From Mustelus asterias (taxonomy: Eukaryota), in contig NW_027590197.1 in NCBI RefSeq assembly GCF_964213995.1, positions 186,001 through 250,000 of the forward strand: a DNA stretch of 64,000 bases, in the 5' to 3' direction. The translations under genes were made by a program, and so were the position numbers. Below the pieces are notes generated by a model that made no database searches, was not told where the DNA came from, and saw only the letters and a program-made list of their open reading frames with translations. Every line of letters starts with the position of its first letter. Positions within the stretch are counted from its first letter, which is position 1. Positions 936 to 63,420 of this stretch are shown here, piece after piece.

Positions 936-1964
936 ATGCTGAAGGTCCACCGTCAATAACTCCAGGAGCCTAGTGCACCAAACTGGGATGGCACTGTGCT
1001 CTGAGCACGCTCAGTGAGGTTGGTGGAGGTGGACTGAGGAGGAACAGGTGGCTCAGATAGTAGGAGCAGATTTTGGTGCAGGGGAGGAATTGGAGCTGTG
1101 GGTCGGCTGGGAAGCTTCAGAAACACGTGATGTATGGAACTCGCAATAAGAATATCAAATTCCTGAGTTTACAGCGCTGGGGCTTTATGGGGACAGGCCC
1201 AGGTTAACAGTTACCATCCTAGTTTGATGACTGGCAGAGCGCATGCACAACTTTCTTGGTGTGGGAGTAGAGAGTGGGTGGGACTTCATGGTCCCAGTGA
1301 TCGGAGAGATAATTATTCACTCATTGATTTTATTCTCATTCTTCACTCAGCAGCTGGAGAATTGAACCCAGGCAGAATAAAGGAAAGGAGAAAACTGGGA
1401 GGAGAAAGGAAATGATGGAGATTGCACTGAAATCCAGTGAATCACATTGGGAGGAGGGACAGTTTGTGGAATGTGATTTACTTTGTGAGTTGTGTCAGCA
1501 ACTTGGAGAACAAGAGAGGAAAAAATATTCCAAAGAAACTAGAGTTGTCAGTTTTGGATTTATGCCTGCACTTTCAGTGAATCATTTGTGTAATGTCCTT
1601 TTACAGGGCATTCACACTGGAGAATTTTCAGACAGGAAATCCAAACCAAACATCACATTGAGATCTGACAGAGTCACTCGATTCATTAGGACCTGAATAT
1701 CTTCGGCCTTTGAATATGGATGGAGAAATGTTTTTCTGTTCTATCTGTGGGAAAAGATTTCAAACATCAGTGTGACTGGAAAAGCACCGACACAGACACA
1801 CCCGAGTGAGAGTGTTCCAGTGAACTGACTGTGAAAAGAGCTTTAACCAGTTACACAGCCTGAAAAAAAATCACACCATTCACAGCGAGGAGAAACGATA
1901 CATGTGTTCTGTGTGTGGATGAGGCCTCAGCTGATCATCCAACCTGGAGAGACACCAGGGCACC

Positions 1965-2723
1965 ATGGAGAAACCGTGGAAATGTGGGGACTGTGGGAAG
2001 GGGTTTAGTTGTCCATCCCACCTAGAAACTCATCGACGCAGTCACACTGGGGAGAGGCCATTCATCTGCTCCAACTGTGGGAAGGGATTCACTCAGCCAT
2101 CCAGCCTTGTGTCACACCAACGAATTCACACTGAGGAGAAACCTTTCAAATGCTTTGACTGTGGGAAAAGCTTTAGGAGCTCTGGGTGTTTAATTCAACA
2201 TCAGGGACTTCACACAGGAGAGAGACCGTTCATCTGCTCCATGTGTGGGAAGAGATTTGCGTCTTCATCGCAACATTCAAAACACCTCCGAGTGCACACG
2301 GGGGAAAGACCATTCACCTGTTCTGAGTGTGGGAAGAGATTCAGGTGTTCATCCAACTTCACTGAACATCTCCGTGTGCACACAGGAGAGAGACCATTCA
2401 CATGCTCTGAGTGTGGGAAGGGATTCACTTGTTCATCCCACCTTGCTGAACACAATCGTGTTCACAGTGGAGAGAAACCATTTGTCTGTTCCACGTGTGG
2501 GAAAGGATTCACTACGTCATCCCAGCATCTGACACACCAGCAGGTTCACACTGGGGAGAGACCGTTCAGCTGCTCCACGTGTGGGAAGAAATTTAGTCGT
2601 TCATCCACCCTGCAGAGACACCAGCGGGTTCACACTGGGGAGAGACCGTTCTCCTGCTCCGAGTGTGGGAAGGGACTCACTCAGTCATCCCACCTGCTGA
2701 GACATCAGCAAATTCACAAGTGA
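1965..2723 (+). CDS. C2H2 zinc-finger protein, 9 tandem fingers (unit 1)
   Basis: Open ORF with 9 CxxC-x12-HxxxH repeats and TGERP linkers; ATG in Kozak context cACCATGG; decayed linker and fingers upstream (~1607-1960). Confidence 0.85.
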
Positions 2724-2756
2724 TTACAGGGGTTGGATTCTGCTGTTAGTCACCAG

Positions 2757-3615
2757 TAAGAGACACTCTAACTACCGGCCCTTGACATTCAATGGTGTTA
2801 CCATCACTGATTTCCTCACTGTCAACATCCTTGGGGTTACCATTGACCAGAAACTCGCCACATAAACACAATGACTACAAGAGCAGGTCAGAAGCGAGTA
2901 ACTCACCTCCTGACTCCCCAAAGCCTGTCCACCATCTACAAGTCAGGAGTGTGATGGAATGCTCCCCACTTGCCTGTATGGGTGCAGCTCCAACAACACT
3001 CAAGAAGCTCGACACCATCCAGGACAAAGCAGCCCGCTTGATTGGCACCACATCTACCAACATCCACTCTCTCCACCACTGACACTCAGTAGCAGCAGTG
3101 TGTACTATCTACAAGATGCACTGCAGCAATTCACCAAAGATCCTTCGACAGCACCTTCAAAACCCACGACTACTTCCATCTAGAAGGACAAGGGCAGCAG
3201 ATGCATGGGAACACCCCCACCTGCAAGTTCCCCTCCCAGTCACTCACCATCCTGACTTGGAAATATAATCGCCGTTCCTTCGCAGTCACTGGGTCAAAAC
3301 CGTGGAATTCCCTCCATAACGGCATTGTGGGTCAACCCACAATAGGTGGATTGGCTATGCTAAATCACCCCTTAGTGTCAGGGGGATTAGCAGGGTTATG
3401 GGAATAGGGCCTGGGTGGGATTGTTGTTGGAACAGACACGATGGGCCGAATGGACGCCTTCTGTATTGTAGGAATTCTATGATTCTATGAATCCATAGCA
3501 TGTGGACTACAGTGATTCAAGAAGGCAGCGCAGCTCCACCTTCTCAAGGCAAATACGAATTGGGCAATAAATGCTGCCCAGCCAGTGATGCCCATGTGCC
3601 ACGAATGAATTTTAA
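2757..3615 (+). mobile_element. Non-LTR retrotransposon (CR1/L2-group) 3' fragment interrupted by a SINE piece at ~3343-3488
   Basis: Translates to QVRSVMECSPLACMGAAPTTLKKLDTIQDKAARLIG, typical of post-RT LINE ORF2. Confidence 0.65.
3343..3488 (+). mobile_element. HE1-like SINE, 3' half
   Basis: ggattggctatgctaaat...gggcctgggtgggattg...gggccgaatgg...gattctatga matches the 3' half of the full copy at 38225-38564. Confidence 0.7.
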
Positions 3616-3779
3616 AAATCAGACCCAGGACTGAACTATGTTCAATCTGACTGAATTCTGAGTTTCTGAACATTGGGTTTGGTGTCCAATGAATCACTTT
3701 TGTTTCCATCATTTTATCCCAACTCCTTGATTTCTCCAAGATGAGAGGAGACTAATTCATCTCCTGTTACTGGGATAGA

Positions 3780-4425
3780 AAGCTGACAAATCCCCTGGAT
3801 CATACGGTCTGCATTCCAGGATCTGGGAAGAGGTGACTGCACTGATACTCGAAGCACTGCCAGTGATTTTCCAAAATTCTCTAGATTCTGCAGTGGTACC
3901 AATGGATTGGAAAGTGGAAAATGTAATCCCAATAATAAAAGCAGGAGAAAGGAAACAGGGGATGACAGGCTATTTAGCCTGACATCAGTCATCAGGAAAA
4001 TATTGGCATCTATCATGAAGGAAGTGGTAAAAATACAATTAGAAAAGTAGAACATGATTGGACAAAGTTAACATTGGTTTATGAAAGAATTTGACAAATC
4101 CAGTAGGATTTGTTGAGGATGTAACTAACAGGTTAGATAAAGGGGAACCAGAGAATATTGTATGATTGAATTTCTAAAAGCTATTTGATAAGGTGCCGTA
4201 CACAAGGTTGTTGCACAGGATAAGGGCTCAGGTCACTGGGGGAAATATTAGCATTGGTAAAGGAGTTGTTAAAGGACAAAGAGAAGGGATTGATGTGTCA
4301 TTTTCAGGTCGGCAGGCTCTTATTATGGGGACAGCACAAGAAGCAGGACAGGAGTTTATTAACAATCCATATTCATGACTTATTTCAAGAGACCAAGTCC
4401 AATGTGTTGAAGTTTCCCGATGGGA
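3780..4425 (+). mobile_element. Highly degenerate CR1 LINE ORF2 fragment
   Basis: Remnants of KSPG.D..HPR, RP.SLTSV, Q.GF, KAFDKVP motifs with stops and frameshifts. Confidence 0.6.
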
Positions 4426-5699: not shown

Positions 5700-6003
5700 C
5701 ATAGAATCCTACAGAGCAGAAGAAGCCCATTCAGCCCATCGAGTCTGCACTGACCACAATCCCGCACTGACCACAATCCCACCCAGACCCTATCCCCGTA
5801 ACCCCATGCATTTACCCTAGCTAGTTCCCCTGGCAATTTTTAGCATAGCCAATCCACCTAACCCGCACATCTTTGGATTGTGGAAGGAAACCCATGCAGA
5901 TACGGGGAGAATGTACAGACTCCACACAGATCGTGACCCAAGCCGGGAATCGAACCCGGTTCCCTGGCGCTGTGAGACAGCAGTGCTAGCCACCCTGCCG
6001 CCC
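5700..6003 (-). mobile_element. HE1-like tRNA-derived SINE
   Basis: Reverse complement of the 38225-38564 element, including B-box GGTTCGATTCC. Confidence 0.8.
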
Positions 6004-6495: not shown

Positions 6496-6719
6496 CTTCA
6501 GGTGTGGACGTTTGTTCCGCGATTAATTAAACTCAGGACAGAACTGTGGTGCCTGTTGACATTAGCTGCTGTATTAGTTATTTTCATTTTATACCTTGGT
6601 GCTTTGGCTTCAGTTGTAATTGAATCACAAAACATAATTTTTTTAAAGCAATAACATACCTCAATGGTGGCTATCTTACCCAGCATTCACAGTGAATCGG
6701 AATATGATCTATCCTTACA

Positions 6720-7030
6720 ACAGACCTTGCGCATGCGTACTGTAGATCCAAAGTGCATGCGCAGTGGATGTTGCTCCCGCAGTAGCAGGAGGGCGGTTAT
6801 ATCGGCTCCGGGTTTCCAGGGAAACGGCTTATTATGGAGGGTAATGCAGGCGGCGGGGTGGATGGGGAGACTTCATAAGCACCCAGTGGAGACAGGAGAA
6901 CCCGAATAATAACTGCTCAGTGCCGCGTTCCAACCATTCGGGGCCGCGACCGCAGATGCCGAGTTGGAGGCCCCGAGTTGACGGAGGCCATCTTTCTCGG
7001 GGCGATGGGCAATAGTGCGCATGCGCGGTT
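6720..7030. promoter_or_regulatory. CpG-rich promoter-like cassette
   Basis: TGCGCATGCGTA (~6728), GTGCATGCGCA (~6752), GCCATCTTT (~6987), TGCGCATGCGCG (~7016); locally CpG-rich. Confidence 0.55.
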
Positions 7031-7039
7031 CTCCCTGTC

Positions 7040-7350
7040 AGCAGGAGGAGAGAATGTTGTGAATTTCTCTCCTGGACTGACAGGGATGGACTTTGGAAAC
7101 TCCTTTTACAGGGAGTTAGAAGGGGAGGATTTACACACAGAAAACTCAACCCAAGAGAAATGTTTCTCACTTAATTTCTATTCTTGACTGACAGTGATGA
7201 TCTTTTTTTACAGGAAATTTGACGACAAAATTTGAAGGGAAACTCAAACCAGACATCAGATCAAAACCTGCCAGAGTCACTCCATTCATCAGAACCTGAT
7301 TGTAAGTGTGTCTGTAGAAAAAGATTCAAACATCTGTGTGACTGGAAATA
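7040..7350 (+). pseudogene. Orphan ZNF-cassette 5' part (two acceptor blocks and decayed linker, no finger array)
   Basis: ctccttttacagg...ggatttacacacagaaaactcaa, then ttttacagg...aactcaaaccagacatca...gtgtgactggaa, homologous to the start of units 1, 9 and 10, then truncated. Confidence 0.55.
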
Positions 7351-8391: not shown

Positions 8392-8690
8392 AAGTTTATT
8401 TATTAGTTACAAGTAGGCTTACATTCAGACTGCGATGAAGGTCCTGTGAAAATCCCCTCGTCGCCACACTCTAGCACCTGTTCAGAGGGAGAATTGAGGG
8501 AGAATTTTAGCATGGCCAATTAACCTAACCTGCACATCTTTGGAGTGTGGGAGGAAACCGGAGCACCCGGAAGAAACCCACGCAGACACAGGGAGAACAT
8601 GCAAACTCCACACAGACAGTGAGCCAAGCCGGGAATCGAATCTGGGTCCCTGGTGCTGTGAGGCAGCAGTGCTAACCACTGTGCCACCAT
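8392..8690 (-). mobile_element. tRNA-derived SINE (HE1-related head)
   Basis: Minus strand GGTGGCACAGTGGTTAGCACTGCTGCCTCACAGC...TTCGATTCCCGG. Confidence 0.75.
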
Positions 8691-8699
8691 GTAATAGTA

Positions 8700-10560: not shown

Positions 10561-11336
10561 CCAACTGGTACAAAGTTACTAAAAAGGTATGGAAATGGGC
10601 AGACCAGGCATGGGCCTTGACACGGGAAACGGCCTTGTCGACCCTGCAAAGTCAGATTTAGAAAATAAATATTTGAAGCTGGTTGTAAACAGCCTGCTTC
10701 AGCACCAGAGTGGGATGCTGTCAGTGTCCACGGGGTGGAGTTTGTAGCACGGACTGAAGACAATCGTTTCATGTTTCTCACTCTTTAAATGGAGGAAACT
10801 TCTCCGAATCCAGGACAGGATCTCAGTCCAGTCGCGATGCTGTGTGACTTTGAGGTGATGATGTTCACATTCACCTGTGAACCTGGTCTTTCTAAATGGT
10901 GGAGGTTGAGGGTTTGGGAGTTTCTATCTGGTTGTAGATGTATCCACTCCTTCACCTCTTCTCCTCCCACATCTCTTAATCCCGCCCATCCGCTGCCTCT
11001 TCACATTGAAGCTCTGGTCTTGTATAGGTTCAGACTGGCTCAAAGGTTCCCTTCCCTGAAGGACATTAGTGAACCAGTTGGGTTTTTATGACAATCCATC
11101 AGTTTTCTTGGTCTCTTTTTCCCAGTGCCGGCCCCACAAATTACCAGATTCATTCAGCTCCATTTCACAACCTGCCTTGGTGATTTTGTGGGTTTTCTCT
11201 CACTCTCTTTTCTTTTTTAAATCAATTTCACAGCATATTCAAAGGTGAGGATTTGCAGTCAGAAAACTGAAACCAAACATCACATCAGGATCAGACAGAG
11301 TCGCCCAATTTATCGTAATATGCGTATCATTGGATT

Positions 11337-12188
11337 TTGAACATGGAAGGAAAAAGCACCGCTCACAGTGGGGAGAAACTGTACACGTGTTCCGTGTGTG
11401 GACGAGGATTCAGCCGTTTATCTGGCCTGTCAAAACATAAATGCAGTCACGGTGGGGAGAAATTGTGGAAATGTGAGTGTTGTGGCAAGGGATTCAGTTC
11501 CCCATCAGAGCTGGAAATTCATCGACGGTGTCACACTGGGGAGAGACCGTTCACCTGCTCCGAGTGTGGGAAAGGATTCACTCAGTTGTCCCACCTGGTG
11601 AGACACCAGCGAATTCACACTGGGGAGAGACCTTTCACCTGCTCTGTGTGCAAGGTGGGATTCACTCAGTCAGCCCACCTGGTGTCACACCAGCGAGTTC
11701 ACACGGGAGAGAGACCATTCACCTGCTCCGAGTGCAAAATGGGATTCACTCAGTCAACCCACCTGGTGACACACCAGCGAGTTCACACTGGGGAGAGACC
11801 ATTCACCTGCTCCGAGTGTGGGAAGAAATTCAGCCGGTCGTTTCACCTTCTGATTCACCAGCGAATTCACTCTGGAGAGAGACCATTCACCTGCTCTGAG
11901 TGTGAGAAGGCATTCATTACATCAACAGAACTGTTGACACACCAGCGGATTCACACTGAGGATAACCCGTTCACCTGCTCCAAATGTGGGAAGGAATTCG
12001 CTAACTCTTCGAACCTGATCTGCCATCAACGGATTCACACTGACGAGAGACCCTTTAAATGCCCAGACTGTGGAAAGTGCTTTAAAAGTTTTGGGAACTT
12101 GATGACCCATCAACGGGTTCACACTCGAGTCCGTTCAGATGCTTTCACTGTGGGACTGAGTTCAGACAATCATCTCCTCTCACTGTAA
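11337..12188 (+). CDS. C2H2 zinc-finger protein, 9 fingers, frameshifted decayed fingers downstream to ~12280 (unit 2)
   Basis: ORF track; likely start ATG GAA GGA at 11343; further finger sequence continues out of frame. Confidence 0.8.
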
Positions 12189-13884
12189 ACCAGCGAGTTC
12201 ACACTGGGGAGAAACCATTCATCTGCTTCAAGTATGGGAAAGGATTCAATCAGTCATCCAACGTGCTGACACACCAGCCAGATTGGAGTTTGCTGTTAAT
12301 CACATCCAGAACTGAACTATATTTATTGGGGTCTGATGTTAACAATATCCAGTGCAGATTTAGATATTAGTATTCTGGGTTAAAAATAAAAAAACATCAA
12401 CTTTGTTTTAATTTTTGAATGACTGCATCTTCATTTGGGAGGCTGGGATTATCCCCGTTTCGAGGGAACTAAGGAATAGACCATAAGCCGTAGGAGCAGC
12501 ATTCGGCCATTCAGCCTTCATTATAACAATGATCCCATTGTGATTCCTGCTGGTTGGGAAATGTGCGATATTGATGCCAGTCTGTCTTTCTTTAATTATC
12601 TTCAATCCCAGTCCTCTGGTTACTGACCCGCATCAGTGGAACAGTTTCTTCCGATCTGCTCTATCAAACCACCCGTCCCCACCCCGATCATCTTGAACAG
12701 ATCCATGAAATCTCCATTTCAGCTTCTTTGTTCTAAAGGGAACACATTTGGGGGAGGCGATGTCTAATGGTATTATCGATAGACTATTAATCCAGAAACC
12801 CAGCTAATGTTCTGGGGACCTGGATTCGAATCCACATGTTGAAAAAGATGAACAGTGTCTGTGGTACCTGCTGGATGTGGTGCAGCACATTTCCCAGGAC
12901 ATTGGAGCAGTAATGAATGAGGCCAGGATGACAGATTCGAAACAACATTATATTCTTTATGCTTGAAACCTGTCTTAGAATTCTCTTCATTAACTGGACC
13001 ATCAATGTGAGGGGAATTAGCATCTTCTGTAATTCCAGAACCCAGAGACACTGATTACCCAAGGATGTTGTTCTGTAATTTACACTATCCCCCAGCAGGG
13101 CTCTTCACCCAGGCTGACAAGAGGCAGCTCAGTGTTAGTGATTTGTCACTGCTGCTGTCCCAGATGTTGTTCAATATAGATTCAAGTTTAGAGAAAGGAG
13201 TGGAAATGGGTAATCCGAACTGCTCACTGTCCCTGACGGGTAATGGTTACTTGAATTTCTCAAACATCGTAGTTTGTAAAGCCACTGTTATTTCATCTCC
13301 AGTATTAGTCAGAATGGGCTATATTCTCCACATGATAGGGCTGGAATTATCTGTGTGGGTGTGTGTCTATGAATGAAGATGTCTGTTTGGTTGTGGGTAT
13401 GTCTCTATGTTTGCCCATGTCTGTGTAAGAGACAGGGAGAGAGAGTGTGTTTGGATCTCTGTGTTTGGATATCTTTATGTGCTGCTTCTTCTTAGGTGCT
13501 TCCTCTCAAAGGTTCCTCTCCGGGTGATTTGAATAGAATCATTCAGAGATTCTGCATCCTGGGTGAATCCACAGGCTGACCATATGCTGTGTAAAACCTG
13601 ACATCCACACCACCAGACCCCACTTTTCCTGGAACAACATCAAGTGTTTGCTGCTTTCCTGATCCTTCCTTTTCCCTCCCTTTTCAATTATATCACTTCT
13701 CATTATTCTGAATTTCAGAGAGGACAGACTCATCCCACTGAATGTCCTCCAAGGACAACCACCTCATCTCAGGAATCAATCCAGTGAAATTTAGTTGCAC
13801 AAAGACAGTGAGCAAATAGAACAAAGACCAAAAGAGTGAAATAGAGACACAGACAGAGACTGTTAGAGTGAAAGAGACTGAGTG

Positions 13885-14680: not shown

Positions 14681-15109
14681 ATACCATATTTTTTTTATTC
14701 ATTTGTGGGACATGGGCGTCGCTAGTTGGCCATCCCGAGTTGCCCTTAAGAAGGTGGTGGTGAGCTACCTTCTTGAATCACTGCAGCTCGTGTGCTGTGG
14801 GTTTACCTACAATGTGGTTAGGGAGGGAATTCCAGGATTTTGTCCCAGCGACTGTGACGGAATGGTGATATATTTTGAAGTCGACCACTGTTCTGCCCAT
14901 GTGACCAACCCAACTATATTGTGCTGCAACCTACGACAGAGTGGGGAAGACTCTAAAAGGACCCTGGGTCTCTGGAATGCTCATCCAGTAACAATTCCAC
15001 CACGCACATTGGTAGATGTATCAATTGGTTGAATAATTTTATATATTAACCCTGTAGTTCTGATCGTAATTGGATGACAAAGCACAATTTTGTGTTGAAC
15101 ATTATCTCC

Positions 15110-15390
15110 TTCCTATGGCGGTCCTCTTACCCAGCATTCGCAGCGAGAGAGAATGTGCCGTATTGTCACAATAGCAGCCGCCTGCGCAGGCGCAGTACCT
15201 GATTCTGAGTGGAGCATGCGCTGTGCGGATTCGGACTGGCCCATGCGCAGTGTGGGTGCTGGAGCTGCAGGGAGGCGGGGAAGTGGGTGCAGAGGCTTCA
15301 GAAACAGTTAGTGGAGGAGGCCTCAAAACCCAGAATAAGGAACCCCCGGGCCCAAGTTTGCACCGACCCGGGGGGTAATTGCAGCAGCTC
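15110..15390 (+). promoter_or_regulatory. CpG-rich promoter/leader of unit 3
   Basis: CTGCGCAGGCGCA, GCATGCGC, CATGCGCA and GGAGGCGGGG motifs ~700 bp upstream of the unit-3 exon. Confidence 0.5.
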
Positions 15391-16029
15391 TAAAATCGGG
15401 GAGGTGGTGGTAATATCAGTGACACAGCCTCATGTTCTGGGGATGGGTTCAAGTCCCATCATGGAGCTGGGGGGGTTTAAATAGAATTCACAAAACGCTG
15501 GAAAATCTGGAATATAATTTCACTTGAGTAACCATTACAGCTGTGAACAATTTTAAAAACCCATCCTGTTTATTCATGGGAATCTGCTGTCTCTCCATAG
15601 ACTTGTCAACATGCGATTCAGTCTCTAACTGCCCTCCTCAGGGGCAGGAAATAAATGCTGGTCTTGGCAATAAAACCACATCACATGAAATAGTGAAGGA
15701 GAAACACTGATAGACTTGGGTTAATGGATGTCATCTTTCTCGGGAGCAGGACACAGGCACGGTTATCACTGTCCCTGTGAGAAAATGTGAATTTCTATCC
15801 TGGACTGACATTGATAGATTTTGGAGTCTCCTTTTCCAGAGGGTGAGAAGGGGAGGATTTACACACAGTAAACTCAAACCAAGTTTGCTTCAATTTTTAA
15901 CTTTGGACTTTTTCTTACAGGATATTAGAAGCGCAGGAGTGGAAGGGAGAAAACTCAAACCAAACATCGCATCAGGATCCGACGCTATCGCCTAAATTAG
16001 TGTAATCTGAATATCATTGGGTTTTGAAC

Positions 16030-20401: not shown

Positions 20402-20455
20402 GGTTCCAGATGAGCTGAGACTGGGCTGGAGTCGGGCGATGGCACTGACATGTGG

Positions 20456-34879: not shown

Positions 34880-34896
34880 AAACCCAATCACTATAG

Positions 34897-47294: not shown

Positions 47295-47824
47295 GTTCAG
47301 AAGTCGATGATGTTCAGGCCCTGATGATTTGGGTGTCTGTCAGATCCTGATGTGATGTTTGATCTGAGTTTCCCACCTACAAATCCTCCTCTTCCAATAT
47401 GCTGTAAAATTAATTCAAAAAGGAGAAAAAAACAGTGATAAACACAAAGGTAGGTTGTGAAATTCAGCTGAATGAATCCGGTAATTTGTGGAGCCGGCAC
47501 AAGGAAAAAGTGACTCCGGAAGCTGCTGGATTGTGATTAAAAACTCAAATGGTTTGCTAATGTCCTTCAATTCAGGAAACCTGCCACCCAGTCCAGATCT
47601 ACACAAGAATTCAACCTTAATGGGAGGAGAAAGATAGAGATGAAACAGGGAGGGAATGAACGGTAAGGACTTTATACATCTACAACTGGCCAAGAACTTT
47701 GACAGAACCTGCCAAACCACAACCTTCACCAACTCAAAGGATGCAGGAAAACTATCACCTCCAAATGTCGCTTTCAATCTCAAAACAACTTGTAATCCTG
47801 AGGTAACCTGTAACCTCCTGCATT

Positions 47825-48889: not shown

Positions 48890-49320
48890 GATGGCGTGCG
48901 TTTTACCCACCATTCCTCGCGGTGGGGAATGTCCCCTATCCACAGCACGGGAGAGTTGTGCATGCGCAGTGAAGCAGTGTTTGACGCGTGCGTAGCGTGG
49001 ACAATGGCAATGGAGAGGGACGTTCCTCTGTCTCATCAACAACCGGTAAGGATGCGGATACATGGAGGGAGGATTGGAACCAGCAGATGGACGGAGAGGG
49101 TTTCTAAATATCTGGTGAAGGTCTCAAACCTCTAATAGTAATCCGCAGGTCCCGTGTTTGCAGCTTCAGGTCTTTTTCCCGAGACGAGGCGAGGTTAACA
49201 GCCGCCATCTTGATTCAGCAGGGAGCGGAGCGCATGCGCTGGTGTCTTGGTGACGCAACAGAGAGTGGGTGGGGCTTAGGCATTTTCTGCTCCCAACCGG
49301 GTCCGAGTGACCGGAATGCA
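48890..49320. promoter_or_regulatory. CpG-rich promoter-like cassette between unit 8 (-) and unit 9 (+)
   Basis: GTGCATGCGCA (~48958), GCCGCCATCTTG (49201-49212), AGCGCATGCGCT (49229-49240). Confidence 0.55.
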
Positions 49321-49434
49321 GAGCAAACTGAGCAACAGGTTTTAAACAGCTTCACCCACTCCCAGGCTGCAGCTAATGTTTGCAGCCGAGAGGAATCCAT
49401 GGGCCATGTATATACTCCAGAAGTTGTTTATTCC

Positions 49435-51440
49435 TGTTTGGCGCAAGAGTGGTAAGGGAATTGTGGCCAAGCCATGGCTTACAAGGGAAATTAGAGATAG
49501 TATCAGATTCAAGGAAGAAGCATTCAAATCGGCAAGAAAAAGCAATAGGCCCGAGGATTGGGAGCAGCTTAAAATTCAGCAAAGGAAGGCCAAGGGATTG
49601 ATTAAGAAGGGAAAAATGGAGTATGAAAGTAAGCGAGCAGGGAACACAAAAACTGACTGTAAAAGTTTCTATAGATATGTAAAGAGAAGAAGATTGACAA
49701 AGACAAATGTTAGAAATGGGAGAATTCATAACGGGGAATAAAGAAATGGCTGAGGGATTAAATTGGTACTTTGCTTCAGTCTTCACAAAGGAAGACGTGA
49801 ATAATGTATCAGAAGTGCTGAGAGAAACATGTTTTAGTCAGGGGCTGAAGGAAATCAGCATCAGTTGAGAGGTTTTTGGGGAAATTGATGGGATTGAAGG
49901 TGGATAAATCTCCAGGTCCAGATAAACTTCATCCCAGAGTACTTAAGGAAGTGGTCCTGGAAATAGTAGATACGTTGGTGGTTATTTTCCCAAATTCTTT
50001 GGAATCGGTAATAGTTCCGACAGATTGGAGGGTAGCTAATGTAAACCCACTATTCAAAAAGGGAGGGAGAGAGAAAACAGGGAACTATAGACCAGTGAGC
50101 CTAACATTAGTACTGGGGAAGTTGCTGGTGTCTATTATCAAGGATTTCACAACTCGGCATTTGGAAGGCAGTGGTATAATCAGACAAAGACAGCATGGAT
50201 TTACAAAAGGGAAATCATGCTTGACGAATCTATTGGAATTTTGTAAGGATGTAAGGAGTAGAGTTGACCGAGGAGAACCAGTGGATGTAGTTTATTTAGA
50301 CTTTCAGAAGGCTTTCGACAAGGTCTCACATAACAGACTGCTATGTAAAGTTAAAGGACATGGGATTGCAGGTCATGTCTTGAGATGGATAGAAAGCTGG
50401 TTCGCAGATAAGAAGCGAAGAGTTGGCATAAATGAGTCTTTTTCTGATTGGCAGTCAGTGACTAGTGGGGTTTGGCAGGGATCTGTGCTTGGACCCCAAC
50501 TCTTCACATTATATATTAATGATTTGGAAGAGGGAACGGAATGTATTATCTCCAAGTTTGCAGATAATACAAAGTTGGGTGGGAGGGTGAGCTGTGAGGA
50601 GGCTGCAGAGATGCTTTAGCGTGATTTGGACAGGCGGAGTGTGTGGGCATCTGCATGGCAGATGCAGTATAATGTGGATAGATGTGAGATTATCCACTTT
50701 GGTAGCAATAATAGGAAGACAGATTATTACTTGAATAGGTGTAAATTGAGGGAGGTGTATCCTCAACAAGATGTTTGATTCCTCGTGCATCACTCGCTGA
50801 AAGTAAGCGTGCAGGTACAGTAGGCAGTAAAGAATGCAAATGATATGTAGGCCTTCATAGCAAGAGGATTTGAGTATAGGGATAGGGATGTTTTGCTGCA
50901 GTTCTATAGGGCGTTGGTGAGGCCACACCTGGAGTATTGTGTACAGTTTTGGTGTCCTTATCTGAGGAAGGATGTCCTTGTTATAGAGGGAGTGCAGCGA
51001 AGGTTTACCAGGCTGATTCCTGGGATGGCAAGTCAGTCATATGAGGAGAAACTAAATCGGTTAGGATTATATTCACTGGAGTTTGGAAGAGTGGGATCTC
51101 ATAGAAACTTAAAAATTCTAACAGGGTTAGATCGGGTAGATACAGAAAGAATGTTCCCAATGGTGGGGGGAGTCCAGAACTCGGGGTCATAGTTTGAGGA
51201 TAAGGGGTAAACCTTTTAGAACTGAGGTGAGGAGAAATTTCTTCACCCAGAGAGTGATGAATGTGTGGAATTCACGGCCACAGAATATAGATCAAGGGAT
51301 ATGGGGGAACGGGAGTGGAGTGGGGTGGGGGGGTGGATTAGGATATTGAATTTGATGATCAACCATGACCATAATGAATGGCGGAGCAAGCTCGAAGGGC
51401 TGAATGACCTACTCCCACTTCTAGATTCTATGTTTCAGTG
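49435..51440 (+). mobile_element. Degenerate CR1 LINE ORF2 and 3' UTR
   Basis: KPWLTREI, KSPGPD, NYRPVSLT, QHGF, DFQKAFDKV, RPHLEYCVQFW across frameshifted ORFs. Confidence 0.9.
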
Positions 51441-53230: not shown

Positions 53231-53874
53231 CTGTAGAGACTGTCTGGCAGCCTGCATGGAGATTTTCAGCTCTCTGTGTCCAGGACAGGAAGCAGTGAGC
53301 ATGGATCTGTCAATCAGCCTCAATCAGCACCTTCAGGAGAATTGGGAGGGTGAATATTAGATACAGCAGAGTGAGAATGGAGGGAGAGTGTGTGGGATGG
53401 AGATTCACAGCTTTGGGGGAATGAGAGAGGAAAGAATGTTCCATAGAAACTAGAATTCTCTGTTCTGAATTTCGATCCTGTACTGACTGTGATGACTTTT
53501 GTAAACTCCTTTTACAGGATATCAGAAGGTGAGGGTTTACAGACAGAAATCTCAAACCAAACGTCACGTCAACATCTGACAGAGTCACTCAATTCAATGG
53601 GACCTGAATATCATCAGCCTTTGAATCTAGGAGAAATGTTTTTCTGTTCTGTCTGCTTCAGGAGATTTTAAATATCAGTGTGACTGGAAAAGCACCGAGA
53701 CACACACACCCGGGTGAGAGTGTTCCAGTGCACTGAGTGTGGAAAACGCTTCAGTTGCACAGCCTGAAAAAACATCACAACATTCACAGTGGGGAGAGAC
53801 TGTACCCGTGTTCTGTGTGTGGACGAGGCTTCAACTGATTGTCCGACCTGGAGAGTCACAAGGACACCTGCACC

Positions 53875-54465
53875 ATGGAGAAACGGTGGAAATGTGGGGA
53901 CTGTGGGAAGGGATTTAGATACCCTTCTCACCTGGAAACTCATCGACGCAGCCACACTGGGGAGAGACCGTTCACCTGTTCTCAGTGTGGGAATGGATTC
54001 AGTCGATTATCCACCCTGCAGACACACCAGAGAGTTCACAATGAGGAAAGGCCATTCATCTGCTTTCATTGTGGGAAGAGATTCACTCAGTCATCCAGCC
54101 TGCAGACACACCAGCGAGTTCACAATGAGGAGAGACCGTTCATCTGCTCTCAGTGTGGGAAGGGATTCAGTCAGTCATCCAGCCTGCGGACACACCAGCG
54201 AGTTCACACTAGGGAGAGGCCGTTCACCTGCTTTCAGTGTGGGAATGGGTTCACTCAGTTATCCCATCTGAAGACACACCAACGGTTTCACACTGGGGAG
54301 AGGCCGTTCACCTGCCCTCAGTGCGAGAAGGGATTTGCTCAGTTATCCACTCTTCAGACACACCAGCGAGTTCACACCAAGGAGAGACCGTTCACCTGCT
54401 CTCAGTGTGGGAAAGGATTCACTCAGTTATCCGACCTGCGGAGACACCAGCGAGTTCACATGTGA
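53875..54465 (+). CDS. C2H2 zinc-finger protein, 7 fingers (unit 9, close paralog of unit 4)
   Basis: ORF 53839-54465, Kozak ATG at 53875; 3' flank very similar to that of unit 4. Confidence 0.85.
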
Positions 54466-54689
54466 TTCCAGGGGTTGGATTCTGCTGTTATTGTTTCTGC
54501 TCTCAATTACATCCAGGACTGCATTTTGTTCATTCTCACAGTTGGTCAATGGGGAGGGTCGGAGGGTTTCTTTCTGCTGGACTGGCCGGTCTCACCACTT
54601 TGCCTCCAGTGGCTGATAATCTTTTAACCTTGTTTTGAATATCTGGCTTTGGATTTCTCAAGGATCACAGAGTGAAAGGGTGTTTGGAA

Positions 54690-54930: not shown

Positions 54931-55110
54931 GTCTTGCAGAGGTTGCTGTGGCAGGGTTGTGTGGTGTCATGGTCACTGTTCTCCTGAAGGCTGGGTAGTT
55001 TGCTGCGGACAATGGTCTGTTTGAGGTTGTGCGGTTGTTTGAAGGCAAGAAGTGGGGGTGTGGGGATGGCCTTGGCGAGATGTTTGTCTTCATCAATGAC
55101 ATGTCATTGA
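54931..55110 (-). mobile_element. Internal Penelope-like fragment
   Basis: Nearly identical to ~21448-21620. Confidence 0.85.
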
Positions 55111-55701
55111 TCAGAACTGAATCCAGACAGAGGGAGGGAGGGAGAAAACTGGGAATGGAGGAAAAGAATGTTGGAGATGATGAGATGGGTTTGGATTTCA
55201 GCCCAGGGAGGAGGGAGAGTGTGTGGGACGGGGATTTACAGGTTTGGGGGAACAAGCGGAAAAAATGTTCCAGAGAAACTAGAATTGTCTGTTCAGAATT
55301 TCTATCCTGGACTGACAGTAGTTTTGTTATCTTCTTTTGCAGGATATTTGAAGGGGAAGATTTACAGACTGGAAACTCAAATCAAATTTCATACGAATAT
55401 TTTACAATCATTCGATTTATCAGCACCTAAACTCAATTAGCCTTTGAATGTGGAAGGAAAAATGTTTGTTCTGCCTGTGGGAAAATATTTCAAACATCAG
55501 TGTGACTGGAGAAGCATCGAGACACATGCACACACTGGAGTGAGACTGTTCCAGTGAACTGACTGTGGAAAGAGCTTTACCCAGTTACGCAGCCTGAAAA
55601 ACATCACACCATTCACTGTCGGGTGAAACCACACACGTGTTCTGTGTGGACAAGGATTTAACAGATCATCCAACCTGGAGCGACACAAAGACACCAGCAC
55701 C

Positions 55702-56781
55702 ATGGAGAAACTGTGGAAATGTGAAGATTGTGGAAAAGTTTGTAAAACCCCATCTCAGCTGGAAATTCATCGACGCAGTCACACTGGGGAGAGACCATTC
55801 ATCTGCTGTATGTGTGGTAAAGGATTCGCTCAGTCATTTAGCCTGGTGTCACACCAGCGAGTTCACACTGAGGACAGACCGTTTAAATGCTCTGACTGTG
55901 GGAACAGTTTTAAGAGTTCTGAGGGTTTAATTCACCATCAACGGGTTCACACTGGCGAGAGACCATTCAATTGCTCTCAATGTGGGAAGAACTTCAGGCA
56001 AGTATCTCACCTCACTGAACACCTACGTGTTCACACTGGGGAGAAACCCTTCACCTGCTCCATGTGTGGGAAGGGATTCACTTGTGCTTCCCACCTCACT
56101 GAACACAAGCGTGTTCACACTGGGGAGAGACCATTCAGCTGCTCTCAGTGTGGGAAACATTTCAGGCAGTATTCCACCCTCACTGAACACAAGCGTGTTC
56201 ACACTGGGGAGAGACCGTTTGTTTGCTCCTTTTGTGGGAAAGGATTTGTTAAATCATCCCATCTTCTTAGACACCAGCGCATCCACACTGGAGAGAGACC
56301 ATTCACCTGCGCTGAGTGTGGGAAGGGATTCACTACAACATCTCACCTCAGTGAACACCAGAGTCTTCACACTGGGGAGAAACCTTTCACCTGCTCCCTG
56401 TGTGGCAAGGGATTCACATGTTTATCCTACCTCAGAAGACACAAAATTGTTCACTCCGATGAGAGACCCTGTAAATGTTCTGACTGTGGGAAGAGGTTTA
56501 AAAGCAGAAATGAACTGATGAAACACCAGCCTCTTCACACAGGGGAGAGGCCGTTTGCTTGCTCTGTGTGTGGGAAGGGATTCACTCAGTCATCACAGCT
56601 CAGCAACCATCAGCTTGTTCATACTGATAAGAGACTGTTTAAATGCTCTGACTGTGGAAAGAGCTTTAAAAGTGCAGGGAATCTGCAGAGACACCAAACC
56701 ACTCCCACTGAGAGGGGCTGTTCAGCTGCTCTTCATCTGGGAACTGATTTACTACTTCATCCCAAATCACTGATCACCTGA
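55702..56781 (+). CDS. C2H2 zinc-finger protein, 11 intact fingers plus one incomplete; decayed fingers continue to ~57170 (unit 10)
   Basis: ORF track; Kozak cACCATGG; finger series related to unit 1. Confidence 0.85.
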   Translation: MEKLWKCEDCGKVCKTPSQLEIHRRSHTGERPFICCMCGKGFAQSFSLVSHQRVHTEDRPFKCSDCGNSFKSSEGLIHHQRVHTGERPFNCSQCGKNFRQVSHLTEHLRVHTGEKPFTCSMCGKGFTCASHLTEHKRVHTGERPFSCSQCGKHFRQYSTLTEHKRVHTGERPFVCSFCGKGFVKSSHLLRHQRIHTGERPFTCAECGKGFTTTSHLSEHQSLHTGEKPFTCSLCGKGFTCLSYLRRHKIVHSDERPCKCSDCGKRFKSRNELMKHQPLHTGERPFACSVCGKGFTQSSQLSNHQLVHTDKRLFKCSDCGKSFKSAGNLQRHQTTPTERGCSAALHLGTDLLLHPKSLIT

Positions 56782-57386
56782 GGGTTCACACTGGTGGGAG
56801 GCCATTCCTCTGATTTGAGTGTGGGAAGGGATTCACTGTCATCCAGCCTGCTAAAACACCGGTGCACTCCCACTGAGGGAGCATGTTCACCTGCTCCGTG
56901 TGTGACAGGGGATTCAATCAGTTCAGCAGCTTTATTTCACATCAACTTGTTCAGACCGAAAAATAAATGGTTTTGATGTTCTGATTGTGACGAGATTTAA
57001 AAGTGCAATGGATCTGCTGCAACACAAGCACAACACTGAGCAGAGGCAGTTTACCTGCTCCATGTGTGGGAAGGGATTCACTCAGTCATTGTATCTCAGT
57101 AAATATCAACTTGTTCACAATGAGAAGAGACTGTTTAAATGCTTGGACTGTGAGAAGAGGTTTAAAAGCTCCCTCCCTAACAGCACCGTGTACCTGTACC
57201 ACAGGGATTGCAGTGATTGAAGAAGGCAGCTCACCACCACCTTCACAGAGTAATGAGGAAGGGGCAATAAATGCTGGCCTGAGCATTTGAAAAATGGAAA
57301 GAAGTCATCGGTGATTTTTCACTCAGTTATTAAGAAGCAACAGTTTAGATATGATACATAAAAGACATAAAACCTGTAATAGGTAA

Positions 57387-58590: not shown

Positions 58591-60032
58591 GGAAGTCTCT
58601 TCAGTCACTTTGTGGTTCATTGCTTGCTGCGACATCCTGTTTAACCTTTATGTAGTGAGTTTACATATTGGCCATGATCACCCCACCCTATCAAGCTTGT
58701 CTTGGCCATGATCACCCCATCCTATCAAGTTTGTCTTGTTTCAGATCTGTGCTAGAGACACGTTTTTGGCTGGGATAAACGGTCTACACTGTCTGAGAAA
58801 TTCAACACATTTAACACTTATTAAGTGGCAATTGTTTCCTGATTTCCCCATCCTTATTCACTTCTTACAAATGATTTCTGATTAACTCAGTAATTCCTAA
58901 ACTACGAGCTTGTTTTAATTTCTTGATTACATATCGTCGCTACTCGAATGATCAGAATCAGCAATACAAACCCTTGAGCTTCCAGCAAGACTAAATGTAA
59001 AATATGGTACAAGTACATTTTTCACTCAGTAATTAGAACATTTCACTTTTCTCAGCACAGCAGCTGGCAGCATTTTAGATTCAGTACCAATTGTTCACTT
59101 CTCTTCTAGCTGGGTCATCCAGACTGGAAACGTTGGCTCTATTCTCTCTCCACAGAAGCTATCAGACCTGCCGAGATTTTTCAGCATTGTCAGTTTTTGA
59201 ATTTCTTGATATCAGCTGGTCCAGTGATTATTGGCACAGTATCGCGCTGTTTTTACACATTTTTCCTGGCTATTTTCAAGTGACACAGTGTTCCAGCTGT
59301 TGGGTTTATGTTGTACCATCAAGTAGGCTTCGCTTTTTGCTTCAATGACACGTCATCTCTGCTGAATGGATCTCAAACCAGTCTTTGTTGTGTGTGGGGT
59401 CATCTGGACTCGAAATGTCAGCTCTTTTCTCTCCTTACAGATGCTGCCAGGCTTGCTGACATTTTCCAGCATTTTCTCTTTTGGTTTGTTGTGTGTTCCA
59501 CCTTACCAAATGTTGCTGCTGCTGTGTCAGAAATTATTGAACTCAGCGACTTTCCAGTTGCATCAATATCAATGTTGATTGTTAAAGTTTTAATTGATGT
59601 GTCTGTAAAATATTTCACTATTTTGTTCACTGTTCCTTGATAATTTCATTTCAGAATGGGAGTGTCACTGTGAAGAACGTGTTAATCAGTAATTGTCAGC
59701 AAGGATTAATCAGCACTTTCTAATTGGAGATGTTAATTAATGGACCCTTTTAAACATTGACTTCTGGATTTTGTATCAATTTAGGATTGAAGTAAAAGTT
59801 TATAATTTTATTGTAAACCAGTTCCTGAATTCTTGAATTTAGGAGAAAGATCACAAAATGTGTGTTTAAAAAGGGACATTGCAGCCCCGAAAATCAGTAA
59901 CATCTCCAGAATATTAAACTCCAGCCATAGAGTTTGTTAACATCAGCAAAATCAAACCAGATATTGTCAGATTATCAATCCTGAATGTGATAAACAGCAG
60001 CAATAACAACAGCAGAATCCAATCCCTTCAGT

Positions 60033-61140
60033 CACTTGTGAACTCGCTGATGTCTCCACTCTTTAGCTGCCTCAGTGAATCCCTTCCCCCACACACACAG
60101 CAGATAAATGGCCTATCCCCGGTATGAATTCACTGGTGTATCATCAAGTTGGAGACTTTGTAAATCCCTTCCCACATATAGAGCAGATAACTGACCTCTC
60201 CCCAGTGTGACCTCGCTGGTGTTCAATGAGGTTGGATGAAGATCTGAAATTCTTCCCACAGGAACTGCAGTTGAATGGCCTCTCCTGAGTGTGAACTTCC
60301 TGGTGGTATTGGAGGCTGGATAACTGGGCAAATTCCACCCCACACACGGAGCAGGTGTACACCTTCTCCCTGGTGTGAATTTGCTGGTGCGCAGTGATGT
60401 TGGCTGAGGACCTGAACCTCTTTCCACAGTGAATGCAGATAAATGGCTTCTCCTCAGTGTGAATAAGTTGGTGTGTCAGCAGGTGGGATGAATTGGTGAA
60501 TCCTTTCCCACACTCGGAGCAGATGAATGGTCTCTCCTGAGTGAACTTGCTGGTGTAATGTGAGGCCGGCTAATTGAGTGAATCCCTTCCCACATACAGA
60601 GCAGGTGAACAGCTTCTCCCCAGTGTGAATGCGTTGGTGATTTCTCAGCAGGGATGGGGAATAGAATCCTTTACCACAGTCCTCACATTTCCACGATTTC
60701 TCCAATGTGGCTGCATCAGTGGATTTCCAGATGGGATGGATAATTGAATCCTTTACCACAATCCTCACATTTCCAAGGTTTCTCCACACAGCCAGAGCTC
60801 TTCTGTCTCTCCAGGTTGGACAGTCAGCGCTGTTCACATACAGAATAGTTTACTATTGAGTCCCCCGCTGTCACTGGCACAATGTTTTTTTTTCAGGTTG
60901 TGAAACTAATCAAAACTCACTTCACTGCAACACCCAGGTGTATATCTCGGTGCTTTTTCTAATCACACTGATGTTTGGAAAGTTTTTCCACAGATTGAAT
61001 CTGGAAAATGAAGTTTTTCTCCATCCTAAGGCTGATGATATTCAGATCCTGATGAATAATATGAGGGTATCAGATCTTGATGTGATGTTTGATTTGAATT
61101 TCCTGTCTGCAAATGTTCTCCTTTTAATATCCTGTAAAAG
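60033..61140 (-). pseudogene. C2H2 zinc-finger pseudogene with frameshifts (unit 11)
   Basis: Fragmented finger ORFs 60144-60362 and 60454-60837; acceptor block and linker at ~60960-61140. Confidence 0.8.
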
Positions 61141-61176
61141 GAATTTTAAAATGTAACCAGTGTCAGTCCAGTATGA

Positions 61177-62259
61177 AGAACATAGAACAGTACAGCACAG
61201 AACAGGCCCTTCGGCCCACGATGTTGTGCCGAGCTTTATCTGAAACCAAGATCAAGCTATCCCACTCCCTATCATCCTGGTGTGCTCCATGTGCCTATCC
61301 AATAACCGCTTAAATGTTCCTAAAGTGTCTGACTCCACTATCACTGCAAGCAGTCCATTCCACACCCCTACCACTCTCTGCGTAAAGAACCTACCTCTGA
61401 TATCCTTCCTATATCTCCCACCATGAACCCTATAGTTATGCCCCCTTGTAATAACTCCATCCACCCGAGGAAATAGTCTTTGAACGTTCACTCTATCTAT
61501 CCCCTTCATCATTTTATAAACCTCTATTAAGTCTCCCCTCAGCTTCCTCCGCTCCAGAGAGGACAGCCCTAGCTCCCTCAACCTTTGCTCATAAGATCTA
61601 CCCTCCAAACCAGGCAGCATCCTGGTAAATCTCCTCTGCATTCTTTCCAGTGCTTCCACATCCTTCTTATAGTGAGGTGACCAGAACTGCACACAATATT
61701 CCAAATGTGGTCTCACCAAGGTCCTGTACAGTTGCAGCATAACCCCACGGCTCTTAAACTCCAACCCCCTGTTAATAAAAGCTAACACACTATAGGCCTT
61801 CTTCACAGCTCGATCCACTTGAGTGGCAACCTTTAGAGATCTGTGGATATGGACCCCAAGATCTCTCTATTCCTCCACAGTCTTCAGAACCCTACCTTTG
61901 ACCCTGTAATCCACATTTAAATTAGTCCTACCAAAATGAATCACCTCACATTTATCAGGGTTAAACTCCATTTGCCATTTTTCAGCCCAGCTTTGCATCC
62001 TATCTATGTCTCTTTGCAGCCTACAACAGCCCCCCACCTCATCCATTACTCCACCAATCTTGGTGTCATCAGCAAATTTACTGATCCACCCTTCAGCCCC
62101 CTCCTCTAAGTCATTAATAAAAATCACAAAGAGCAGAGGACCAAGCACTGATCCCTGTGGCACTCCGCTAGCAACCTGCCTCCAGTCCGAAAATCTTCCA
62201 TCCACCACCACCCTCTGTCTTCGATCAGATATGATGTGGGCTATCCAATTGGCCAACTA
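61177..62259 (-). mobile_element. 5'-truncated CR1/HER1 LINE (same young subfamily as 33461-34879) in the unit-11 intron
   Basis: ORFs 61252-61818 and 61867-62256 almost identical in protein to 33532-34803; splits the conserved acceptor block. Confidence 0.9.
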
Positions 62260-62429
62260 TTAAGATGCAGAACAGACAATTCTAGCTTCTCTGGAACATG
62301 TTTCTGTCTGTTGTTCCCCCATAATCAGTAAATGCCCATCCCACACTCCCTGGGCTGAAATCGAAATAAAGTTATGGATAATTATTTCTGTAAGCTTTTG
62401 ACAAATTTGGTATCGACTGATGTCCACAG

Positions 62430-62592
62430 AGATGTGCAGGTTAGGTGGATTGGCCATGCTAAATTGCCCTTTGGTGTTGGGGGAGGGGGTGGGGGCTAGC
62501 AAGGTGAATGCATGGGGTTGTGGGGATGGGGCCTGGGTGCAGACTCGATGGGCCAAATGGCCTCCTTCTGCACTGTAGGGATTTTATGATTC
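62430..62592 (+). mobile_element. HE1-like SINE 3' half
   Basis: gatgtgcaggttaggtggattggccatgctaaattgccc...ggcctccttctgcactgtaggg. Confidence 0.75.
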
Positions 62593-62821
62593 CAGAGTAA
62601 CAGACCTTGTGTCCAGAACTGACTGCCTGGAGATTTTCTTAGAGGAGTCAAACCGCCTGGTTATTGATCCCTCTCACAAGAGGAAAGGTTTCCTGCAAAA
62701 CATGTCCCTCAGAATTGGTAAACTTCAGTCAGGTTCTCCCGCCCCCCCAATGCTGAGAATCCAGATTGCACTAAACACGCGCACGCCCCCCGACATTGAC
62801 CTCTCCCGGGTACCTCACAAT

Positions 62822-62985
62822 AAGAAGTTTAACAACACCAGGTTAAAGTCCAACAGGTTTATTTGGTAGCAAAAGCCACACCTGGAGATTTTGCTACCAA
62901 ATAAACCTGTTGGACTTTAACCTGGTGTTGTTAAACTTCTTACCGTGTTTACCCCAGTCCAACGCCGGCATCTCCACATCATGAC
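62822..62985. mobile_element. Miniature palindromic Penelope-derived insertion with 11-bp TSD
   Basis: 54-bp arms (62821-62874 and 62889-62942), same 3' extension as 23412-23443, TSD TACCTCACAAT at 62811-62821 and 62986-62996. Confidence 0.85.
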
Positions 62986-62989
62986 TACC

Positions 62990-63420
62990 TCACAATGCCC
63001 GGGGAGTGATTGACAGCAGCTTGGGACCGATAGGGAGAGAGGGCGGGGTTGGAGGACCGATCGGAGCGGCTGGTCCTCCAACCAATCAGAGTGAATGAGG
63101 GGGCGGGGCTTGGCTGTGAGTGAAGCATGCGCAGTCTAGTTAATGGCGACGAAGACAAGCTTTTGTTCTTTGGATCTGCCATCCGTAACCGAGAGAATGG
63201 CGAGACGAAGGGAACCACGGATCAGGTGAGTGACTGGATACGTAACGTAAACACGTTACACAAACCGCAAATGCGGAAAAAATATCCCACCGTTTCCCGT
63301 GAACCGTTGCCTCCTCCCTGCAGCAGGGGCCGCAGCTTTCTCACAGAGCTGGGTTTCGCGGCCGCTATCTTTATCCAGGCATTAGCAGCAGAGCGCATGC
63401 GCGGCTCCATCTTTGTTCGG
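62990..63420. promoter_or_regulatory. Putative bidirectional promoter core and first-exon cassette upstream of unit 11
   Basis: Homologous to 19830-19980 (GC boxes, CCAAT, GCATGCGCA, TAATGGCGAC); GCGCATGCGC at ~63393. Confidence 0.6.

Follow-up and report, generated by a model that had tools for sequence, protein, structure and literature searches.

Anatomy and range of a probable shark family of finger-only C2H2 zinc finger genes

What are the zinc finger arrays that recur, together with similar non-coding sequence, along one short stretch of a shark genome? The stretch comprises 64,000 nucleotides of Mustelus asterias DNA (contig NW_027590197.1, positions 186,001-250,000, forward strand; assembly GCF_964213995.1), referred to here as the window. 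A six-frame scan finds 96 C2H2 patterns, 92 of them stop-free, that form 11 arrays on both strands between positions 1737 and 60769. Each array with its flanks is termed a unit (U1 to U11). We consider it probable, as a complete explanation, that the window holds part of a tandem family of finger-only C2H2 genes that is old and shared across sharks.

Finger arrays and their shared non-coding scaffold

In a self-comparison of the window, the likeness between arrays continues past the fingers on both flanks, in agreement with the original prediction of a scaffolded finger cassette present about 11 times. Four profiles of non-coding scaffold parts were built from the window's own pieces and compared with 10 shuffled windows as a control, in which none of the four had a match. 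The part described earlier as a linker, here called the leader, is present at full length in 10 of 11 units, with U6 retaining just its first bases, and a block in the 3' untranslated region (UTR) is found in all units but U10 (10 of 11). Leave-one-out E-values for these two profiles range from 1e-8 to 1e-26. The cassette is upheld for 11 units, with leader and 3' UTR block in 10 units each, but the intron block quoted as part of it occurs in six units only. A quoted polyadenylation motif fares worse, since it is found within three mismatches in just two units.

The fingers are of the tandem Krueppel type, in that six open frames contain 7-11 canonical fingers joined by TGEKP-type linkers, and Pfam zf-C2H2 and zf-H2C2_2 score far over the cut-off in the window proteins. 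Searches for tRNAs and Rfam families gave no match, and atlas and PDB searches returned generic C2H2 neighbors only.

Two subfamilies can be distinguished. By profile search, the intron block of the original prediction is confined to U1, U4, U6, U9, U10 and U11, which we call type B. Units U2, U5 and U8 (type A) have another intron block, which includes short pieces of repeats found elsewhere in the window; a Heterodontus model also matches the 3' end of this block. The protein of U3 places it in type A, and its acceptor is doubled, while U7 has neither intron block. In type A, an AACATGG start (U2, U3, U5 and U8) closes the leader and opens one conserved finger ahead of a finger marked by tryptophan (the W finger, described below). 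In type B, the leader is followed by three dead fingers and then by an ATG in the context ACCATGG (U1, U4, U9 and U10), which lies in a former finger linker directly ahead of the W finger. Database models P0165 (Pristiophorus) and P0167 (Cetorhinus) begin exactly at these two start positions, and the subfamily features are common to the window units and to Heterodontus and Pristiophorus. From the shared ATGs, frames of 196-359 codons are open in U1, U2, U4, U8, U9 and U10 (6 of 11 units). U3 is divided by a long interspersed nuclear element (LINE), U5 and U7 have early stops, and U6 and U11 lack an ATG at the start site.

Across sharks, the first finger of type A (11388-11450, 16075-16137 and 35659-35721; also P0132, P0167 and P0173) is conserved too: its contact residues are nearly constant, and there is often an additional cysteine between its histidines.

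This layout suggests that each gene would consist of a CpG-island promoter, at least one non-coding exon, and a last exon with everything else. The last exon would open with a 5' UTR (the leader, joined in type B by the three dead fingers), hold the start codon internally, and continue through the complete finger array to the 3' UTR. We infer transcription from the CpG islands, two of which are possibly bidirectional, splicing of the non-coding exons, and translation of finger-only proteins. The genes would have been copied as DNA segments, probably via unequal recombination, many of them having died since, and the scaffold would remain alignable through passive inheritance in a slowly mutating lineage. 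The proteins would carry the conserved Trp-marked finger first or second from the N-terminus, and in the fingers after it the base contacts vary freely, providing a large DNA-binding repertoire.

Leader, W finger and the search for an effector domain

Several copies of the leader follow the acceptor in frame with the fingers, and some database models run upstream through the leader in frame. KRAB genes have a linker exon, to which such an in-frame leader may be likened. Both observations would suit an unrecognized effector exon, located in the islands or beyond the window and spliced in frame to the leader, which would give these genes a KRAB- or FiNZ-like build. We regard this arrangement as quite unlikely. 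In-frame stops interrupt 5 of 6 ungapped leader copies, and leader differences at codon positions 1, 2 and 3 (0.28, 0.33 and 0.30) have no codon periodicity; these ungapped comparisons omit U4, U7, U8 and U10, which are frameshifted, and U6, which has no leader. The related idea of the leader as a decayed coding linker behind a lost effector exon loses support on the same lack of periodicity. Furthermore, the first dead finger of type B carries a TGA in all five units that retain it: a stop follows FQTSV in U1, U10 and U11, and one is found at the corresponding position in U4 and U9. The Pristiophorus and Heterodontus models P0121 and P0134 end at FQTSV as well, and the P0128 contig reads Trp there. 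Because window units, Pristiophorus and Heterodontus have the same end point, this finger had probably died by the time of early sharks. We also weighed readthrough of the shared TGA but dropped it, as further stops and frameshifts occur in the same dead fingers.

The database models likewise argue against an effector exon. No shared domain was found upstream of the leader in 23 models, and mutual matches among their upstream strings are short and nearly all represent translated intron block or promoter DNA. For FiNZ this evidence is indirect, since it consists of the lack of a common upstream coding string in the 23 models and no FiNZ profile search was made. A KRAB profile built from 58 tetrapod stretches recovers a coelacanth control at E 1.6e-20 but reaches a best E of only 2.6 in the six frames of the window, which agrees with the earlier statement that no KRAB exon is recognizable here; an exon of U1 or U11 could still lie beyond the window. 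Among 57 stored proteins, the only KRAB matches are coelacanth P0087 and gecko P0166. KRAB, SCAN and BTB are absent from the Pfam families of six window proteins and 12 database models (among the best 25 families for two of them); intergenic DNA was not scanned for SCAN or BTB. The family is a tandem zinc finger (ZNF) cluster that is shark-wide and probably effector-less.

The leader has a mean p-distance of 0.32, equal to that at four-fold sites of the W finger (0.32), and the 3' UTR has 0.37. Intron blocks have 0.21, a value measured within subfamilies only and for this reason not comparable with those of the leader or 3' UTR. Since the scaffold diverges at the level of silent sites, no special constraint or function is needed to account for it, and the leader appears to be non-coding, resembling a 5' UTR that was inherited passively along with dead fingers.

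Every unit (11 of 11) has a finger with Trp two residues ahead of the first Cys. This W finger mostly has Pro-Ser at helix positions +1/+2 and Glu at +5. Type B arrays have it as their first intact finger, and in type A it comes second. Outside the window it is also found in Rhinoraja, Heptranchias, Pristiophorus, Heterodontus, Stegostoma, Carcharodon, Cetorhinus and Scyliorhinus. Among 1231 fingers of 117 other, non-chondrichthyan vertebrate proteins, Trp occupies this site once, and Pro-Ser combined with Glu is never found. The ratio of nonsynonymous to synonymous divergence (dN/dS) is 0.28 for the W finger and 0.49 for the one that follows. At positions -1, 3 and 6 the W finger still varies, and so it may bind DNA like other fingers. 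An AlphaFold model depicts an ordinary finger (predicted local distance difference test, 92), and a homodimer prediction for the W finger with the next finger (score 0.00 against a mark of 0.32) gave no answer either way.

The remaining fingers are diverse, with 66 distinct fingerprints among 81 fingers. Purifying selection acts on the finger frameworks, as judged from these sequences: dN/dS is ~0.9-1.1 at contact positions versus 0.3-0.4 elsewhere, with a range of 0.24-0.41 for the framework. The dN/dS comparison at helix positions -1, 2, 3 and 6 that was proposed with the original prediction separates contacts from framework, but its outcome at the contacts fits diversifying selection and relaxation alike.

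Fingers are 86% identical within U4 (24973-25875) and 84% within U9 (53893-54459), compared with 72-73% between arrays, which suggests internal duplication or conversion. A PRDM9-like reading of these homogeneous arrays was rejected, as the fingers of each array match one another at no more than 84-86% and the Pfam families listed for these proteins do not include SET.

Shark-wide range, age and relation to known families

A profile of seven leader frames was searched against 1.84 billion representative proteins and matches 37 representatives. P0139 and P0154 are repeat-driven and were set aside, leaving 35 plausible matches, 24 of which lead into fingers or finger remnants. Thirty of the 37 were looked up and 25 could be named. 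All 25 are sharks, belonging to nine genera (Pristiophorus, Heterodontus, Stegostoma, Chiloscyllium, Rhincodon, Carcharodon, Cetorhinus, Scyliorhinus and Mustelus), which we take to represent five orders. Together with the negative KRAB profile, this supports the proposed chondrichthyan expansion without KRAB. With 11 units in 64 kb, five of them broken, and sharks as all 25 named relatives, the family is clustered, lineage-specific and of the birth-and-death kind.

Scaffold translations P0123, P0128, P0135, P0153 and P0156 are ENA/JGI proteins on short contigs, probably shark DNA in metagenome assemblies. In a word-index search, generic finger likeness led from U10 mainly to tetrapod KRAB-ZNFs, and 3 of the 120 entries listed are chondrichthyan. 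Comparison of the U9 leader with longer proteins gave one candidate and no match, and two motif scans of metagenome contigs gave 0 matches.

A shared non-coding scaffold on both strands, with partial copies, could also be produced by a mobile element or generic repeat that carries zinc fingers. We consider this highly improbable. The copies are ~30% diverged and have ragged ends, with no common terminal repeat or tail in the alignments, and the promoters belong to unlike families. All 10 full leaders in the window lead into fingers. Moreover, database matches are concentrated on single chromosomes in Heterodontus and Cetorhinus: leaving P0125 aside, five of six Heterodontus proteins lie in a single record, and a single record also accounts for every Cetorhinus protein seen.

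Leader and 3' UTR distances covary (rho 0.65, p 0.001, nine units), as is expected under whole-gene DNA duplication. W finger distances track neither. The covariance and the inherited introns with old repeat fragments bear out the claim that whole transcription units were copied at the DNA level. The duplications do not appear to be young, however, as the picture of a fast-spreading cassette would require. Compared in frame, leaders are 50% identical among six window units and 53% identical between these and 11 database matches, a set with a bias towards the consensus; copies in the window are thus no closer to one another than to those of other sharks. None of 200 bootstrap trees for 18 type A rows groups the four window units together, and a Carcharodon-Mustelus pair is strongly supported. 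Subfamilies common to Heterodontus and Pristiophorus likewise speak against recent spread. The youngest pair is U4 and U9, with 3' UTRs 93% identical. The epaulette shark has a mutation rate of 7e-10 per base per generation (PMC10587355), and at so slow a rate 30% divergence in a shark is old. We infer that the copies are old (~30% diverged) and not recently spread. The same pedigree rate proved unusable as a clock for the copies, since its face value would be ~3e8 generations.

Several observations weigh against an old, shark-wide family of finger-only genes. Five of 11 units are broken. The leader is found in no ray or chimaera among the 25 named matches, 11 of the 35 plausible matches have no finger in the model, and stingray protein P0082 lacks the W finger. 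An approximately unbiased test does not exclude a clade uniting the four type A units of the window (p 0.054), and the age argument is weak in that the database matches were picked by likeness to the profile. The exon joins are taken from database gene models, which may be partly ab initio. Lastly, across 40 independent finger pairs the ratio of nonsynonymous to synonymous differences (pN/pS) at contact sites is ~1.0-1.4, a value that relaxed constraint would explain as readily as positive selection.

Some of these points would favor a largely neutral pile, in which repeat recombination duplicates finger genes, a few serve ordinary host targets, most decay, and transposons are not controlled. 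The broken units, a contact-site pN/pS near 1, and LINE coding fragments that make up 19% of the window and lie inside three units are all compatible with it, as is the age of the copies, unlike the young FZNFs tied to young transposons (PMC10547256). Broken copies also bear out the birth and death that was predicted. Yet six frames remain open despite 30% divergence of the adjoining non-coding DNA, with framework dN/dS far below 1 as given above, and the W finger is retained from skate to sawshark to lamnids. A correlation between ZNFs and retroelements across metazoans (PMC10547256) points the same way. We judge the neutral pile to be somewhat unlikely, and an old family of finger-only genes to be the better account.

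The family resembles KRAB-ZNFs (KZFPs) in its tandem clusters, one-exon finger array, TGEKP-type linkers, variable contacts on a conserved framework, and many dead copies. In contrast, KRAB is absent from both the window and its relatives, and the protein appears to start inside the finger exon. KZFPs have been placed in sarcopterygians, with TRIM28 said to be absent in fish (PMC10380595), and KRAB genes have been placed outside cartilaginous fishes (PMC10380595, PMC8455134, PMC11603059). The FiNZ-ZNFs of cyprinids are similarly lineage-specific and clustered, number hundreds of genes or more, and have a shared translation-start context that permits family-wide knockdown (PMC10547256). However, the FiNZ domain, acidic and 28 residues long, has a coding exon to itself and is unique to cyprinids (PMC10547256), whereas the shark family has a finger as its conserved N-terminal element, showed no conserved coding exon upstream, and consists mostly of old copies. 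RefSeq shark models named 'zinc finger protein 239-like' and 'XlCGF/XlCOF-like' are the same proteins with the same two start positions, although these are automatic best-hit names and many of the models translate leader, intron or promoter as coding.

The expansion has already been counted in print. Supplemental Data 1 of PMC10547256 gives ZNF open reading frame (ORF) counts of 3586 for S. canicula, 1851 for C. carcharias, 1223 for A. radiata, 1179 for S. torazame, 1165 for R. typus and 1106 for C. plagiosum, compared with 697 for human and 1710 for zebrafish; Pristis (315) and Callorhinchus (475) are lower. The chondrichthyan ORFs are very likely the same genes as those described here. In that source we found numbers only and neither anatomy nor marker, and a word search of its main text finds none of the words shark, chondrichth- or cartilaginous. 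We found no description of a shark W-finger family in the literature searched, which did not include most subscription papers and bioRxiv supplements, so that a description may exist in print. The anatomy, the W finger and the dead-finger leader, retained passively, appear not to have been described before.

What the repertoire is for can be addressed by analogy. Positive selection and transposon repression have been shown for FiNZ-ZNFs (PMC10547256). By comparison with KRAB- and FiNZ-ZNFs, it is quite possible, if short of probable, that the shark repertoire is aimed largely at transposons and would act by site occupancy or finger-mediated partner recruitment. A stronger proposal, which we regard as unlikely, is that elasmobranchs have a third independent zinc finger transposon defense in which the W finger would be a corepressor-recruiting handle replacing KRAB or FiNZ. 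On this proposal the W finger would have been kept across sharks and a skate while the leader and preceding fingers decayed, and the start codon would have shifted down the array, leaving the W finger first. If it is true, perhaps a thousand genes would silence repeats without TRIM28.

These questions matter because sharks have retroelement-rich genomes and, in several species, more than 1000 tandem zinc finger ORFs (PMC10547256 supplement), and KRAB genes are described as sarcopterygian. The anatomy, leader and W finger make the transposon question testable. Leader and W finger mark the family, so that it can be counted and correctly annotated, and the two shared start-codon contexts would make a family-wide translation block possible in shark embryos, which is the experiment that showed transposon repression by FiNZ genes (PMC10547256). 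A caution also follows, that in sharks non-coding sequence common to paralogs implies neither recent spread nor function.

Units, promoter islands and neighboring repeats

Among the type A units, U2 (10860-12420, + strand) has an intron block with old repeat fragments, a leader, a 3' UTR, and a coding sequence at 11343-12188 (281 amino acids, nine fingers, tail frameshifted). U8 (46258-47741, - strand) has a coding sequence at 47294-46425 that specifies 289 amino acids and eight canonical fingers. U3 (15786-18570, + strand) is broken, consisting of a doubled acceptor/leader, an ATG at 16030, two fingers, a LINE insertion, ten more intact fingers and a 3' UTR. U5 (33322-36300, - strand) is also broken, with an ATG at 35766, a stop at codon 25, nine intact fingers thereafter, and a LINE-split 3' UTR. 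The unassigned U7 (41156-42345, + strand), likewise broken, has a leader, no recognizable intron block, an ATG at 41373, and two fingers followed by a stop.

Type B begins with U1 (1330-3711, + strand), which has an intron block at 1449-1606, a leader, three dead fingers, a coding sequence at 1965-2723 (252 amino acids, nine fingers), and a repeat-split 3' UTR. U4 (24465-26060, + strand; coding sequence 24955-25881, 308 amino acids, 11 fingers) has U9 as its nearest paralog (53373-54642, + strand; coding sequence 53875-54465, 196 amino acids, seven fingers). U10 (55113-57170, + strand) encodes 359 amino acids with 11 canonical fingers at 55702-56781, followed by a frameshifted tail and further dead fingers. 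U6 (38879-39598, - strand) is probably broken, with its leader deleted, ATA in place of the start codon, and five fingers. U11 (59860-62348, - strand) is broken, with a LINE-split intron (61177-62258), no ATG, and a stop and frameshifts.

Seven CpG islands lie outside LINE, short interspersed nuclear element (SINE) and Penelope-like pieces and hold 17 of the 18 GCATGCGC sites in the window (simulated mean 0.19, maximum 3). The proposal that a CpG promoter belongs to the recurring scaffold is supported by these islands, but there are only seven of them for 11 units. The motif names NRF1, YY1, NF-Y and ZNF143/Staf used for islands are our presumed assignments. The island at 1-300 (no strand assigned here or below unless given) has NRF1-type and YY1-type sites and probably serves U1 as promoter and first exon. 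Its bases 119-199 correspond to the N-terminal string of a Carcharodon model in which a leader is joined on. An island at 15001-15400 is the likely U3 promoter. Those at 40151-40850, between U6 (-) and U7 (+) and with CCAAT and NRF1-type sites, and at 48801-49450, between U8 (-) and U9 (+), are possibly bidirectional. The island at 62901-63550 is of the same family as 19651-20300 and 40151-40850 and is the likely U11 promoter. At 19393-20300 (- strand), an island with a leader remnant has no adjacent fingers. Its promoter-proximal part, 19446-19830, is a 94% identical duplicate of 40004-40398, far younger than the finger units, and in the copy at 19.4-20.3 kb the gene has been lost.

Fingerless orphan pieces of scaffold were predicted at three places, and partial copies without adjoining fingers are indeed present at all three (~7055-7304, 36819-36874 and 42915-43003), with an additional copy at 15786-15882 immediately upstream of U3. 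Not all of them look like orphans, however. An island with two partial acceptor/leader copies (6651-7307, + strand) probably supplies one or more upstream non-coding exons of U2. The piece at 7040-7350 directly follows this island and ends in a donor, GTAAGT, at 7302; the island-less U2 is found 4 kb downstream. In addition, six database models (P0122, P0130, P0142, P0143, P0145 and P0157) carry a tandem pair of leaders whose second member is in a different frame, and in P0145 the first of the pair is similar to this piece. For these reasons the piece is read as a putative upstream non-coding exon that would have arisen by internal duplication. The partial copies before U3 and U5 would fit the same pattern; the one before U5 (36770-36890, - strand) lies 0.9 kb upstream of the U5 leader on the same strand, and its AG is changed, as in a relic exon. 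The piece at 42890-43010 (+ strand), which has a promoter-like remnant at 42616-42670 and no same-strand unit downstream for 10 kb, and the island at 19393-20300 look like true relics.

A TTACCCA(G/C)CATTC motif stands at the edge of three promoter islands (6677, 15128 and 48904), with a related remnant at 42616-42670; it resembles what we take to be a ZNF143/Staf site. Beside a CpG island, 20238-20404 is a short tandem repeat of ~28 bases with three TGACGTCA palindromes, and a similar word occurs at 24319, upstream of U4.

The sole relation seen in the window between units and neighboring repeats is LINE insertion into three units, U3, U5 and U11. In the U3 finger array, a LINE 3' fragment (16232-17586, + strand) is flanked by a 5-base target duplication, GAGAC, with the ten intact fingers behind it. 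Another 3' fragment with an RVT_1 domain, in the U5 3' UTR (33449-34876, + strand), is 96% identical to 61177-62258 in the U11 intron. A Penelope-like 3' fragment occurs twice as a near-perfect head-to-head palindrome at 21050-23030 (GIY-YIG with E 1.8e-4, narrowly short of the Pfam cut-off), with an inverted pair on its flanks (20658-20988 and 23089-23410); a 99% identical 174-base piece lies at 54931-55104. Finally, a dispersed repeat of ~200 bases is present at ~11 places in the window (for example 5832-5993, 8505-8691, 18873-19046 and 38225-38430), with copies 76-97% identical, and is SINE-like by size and layout.

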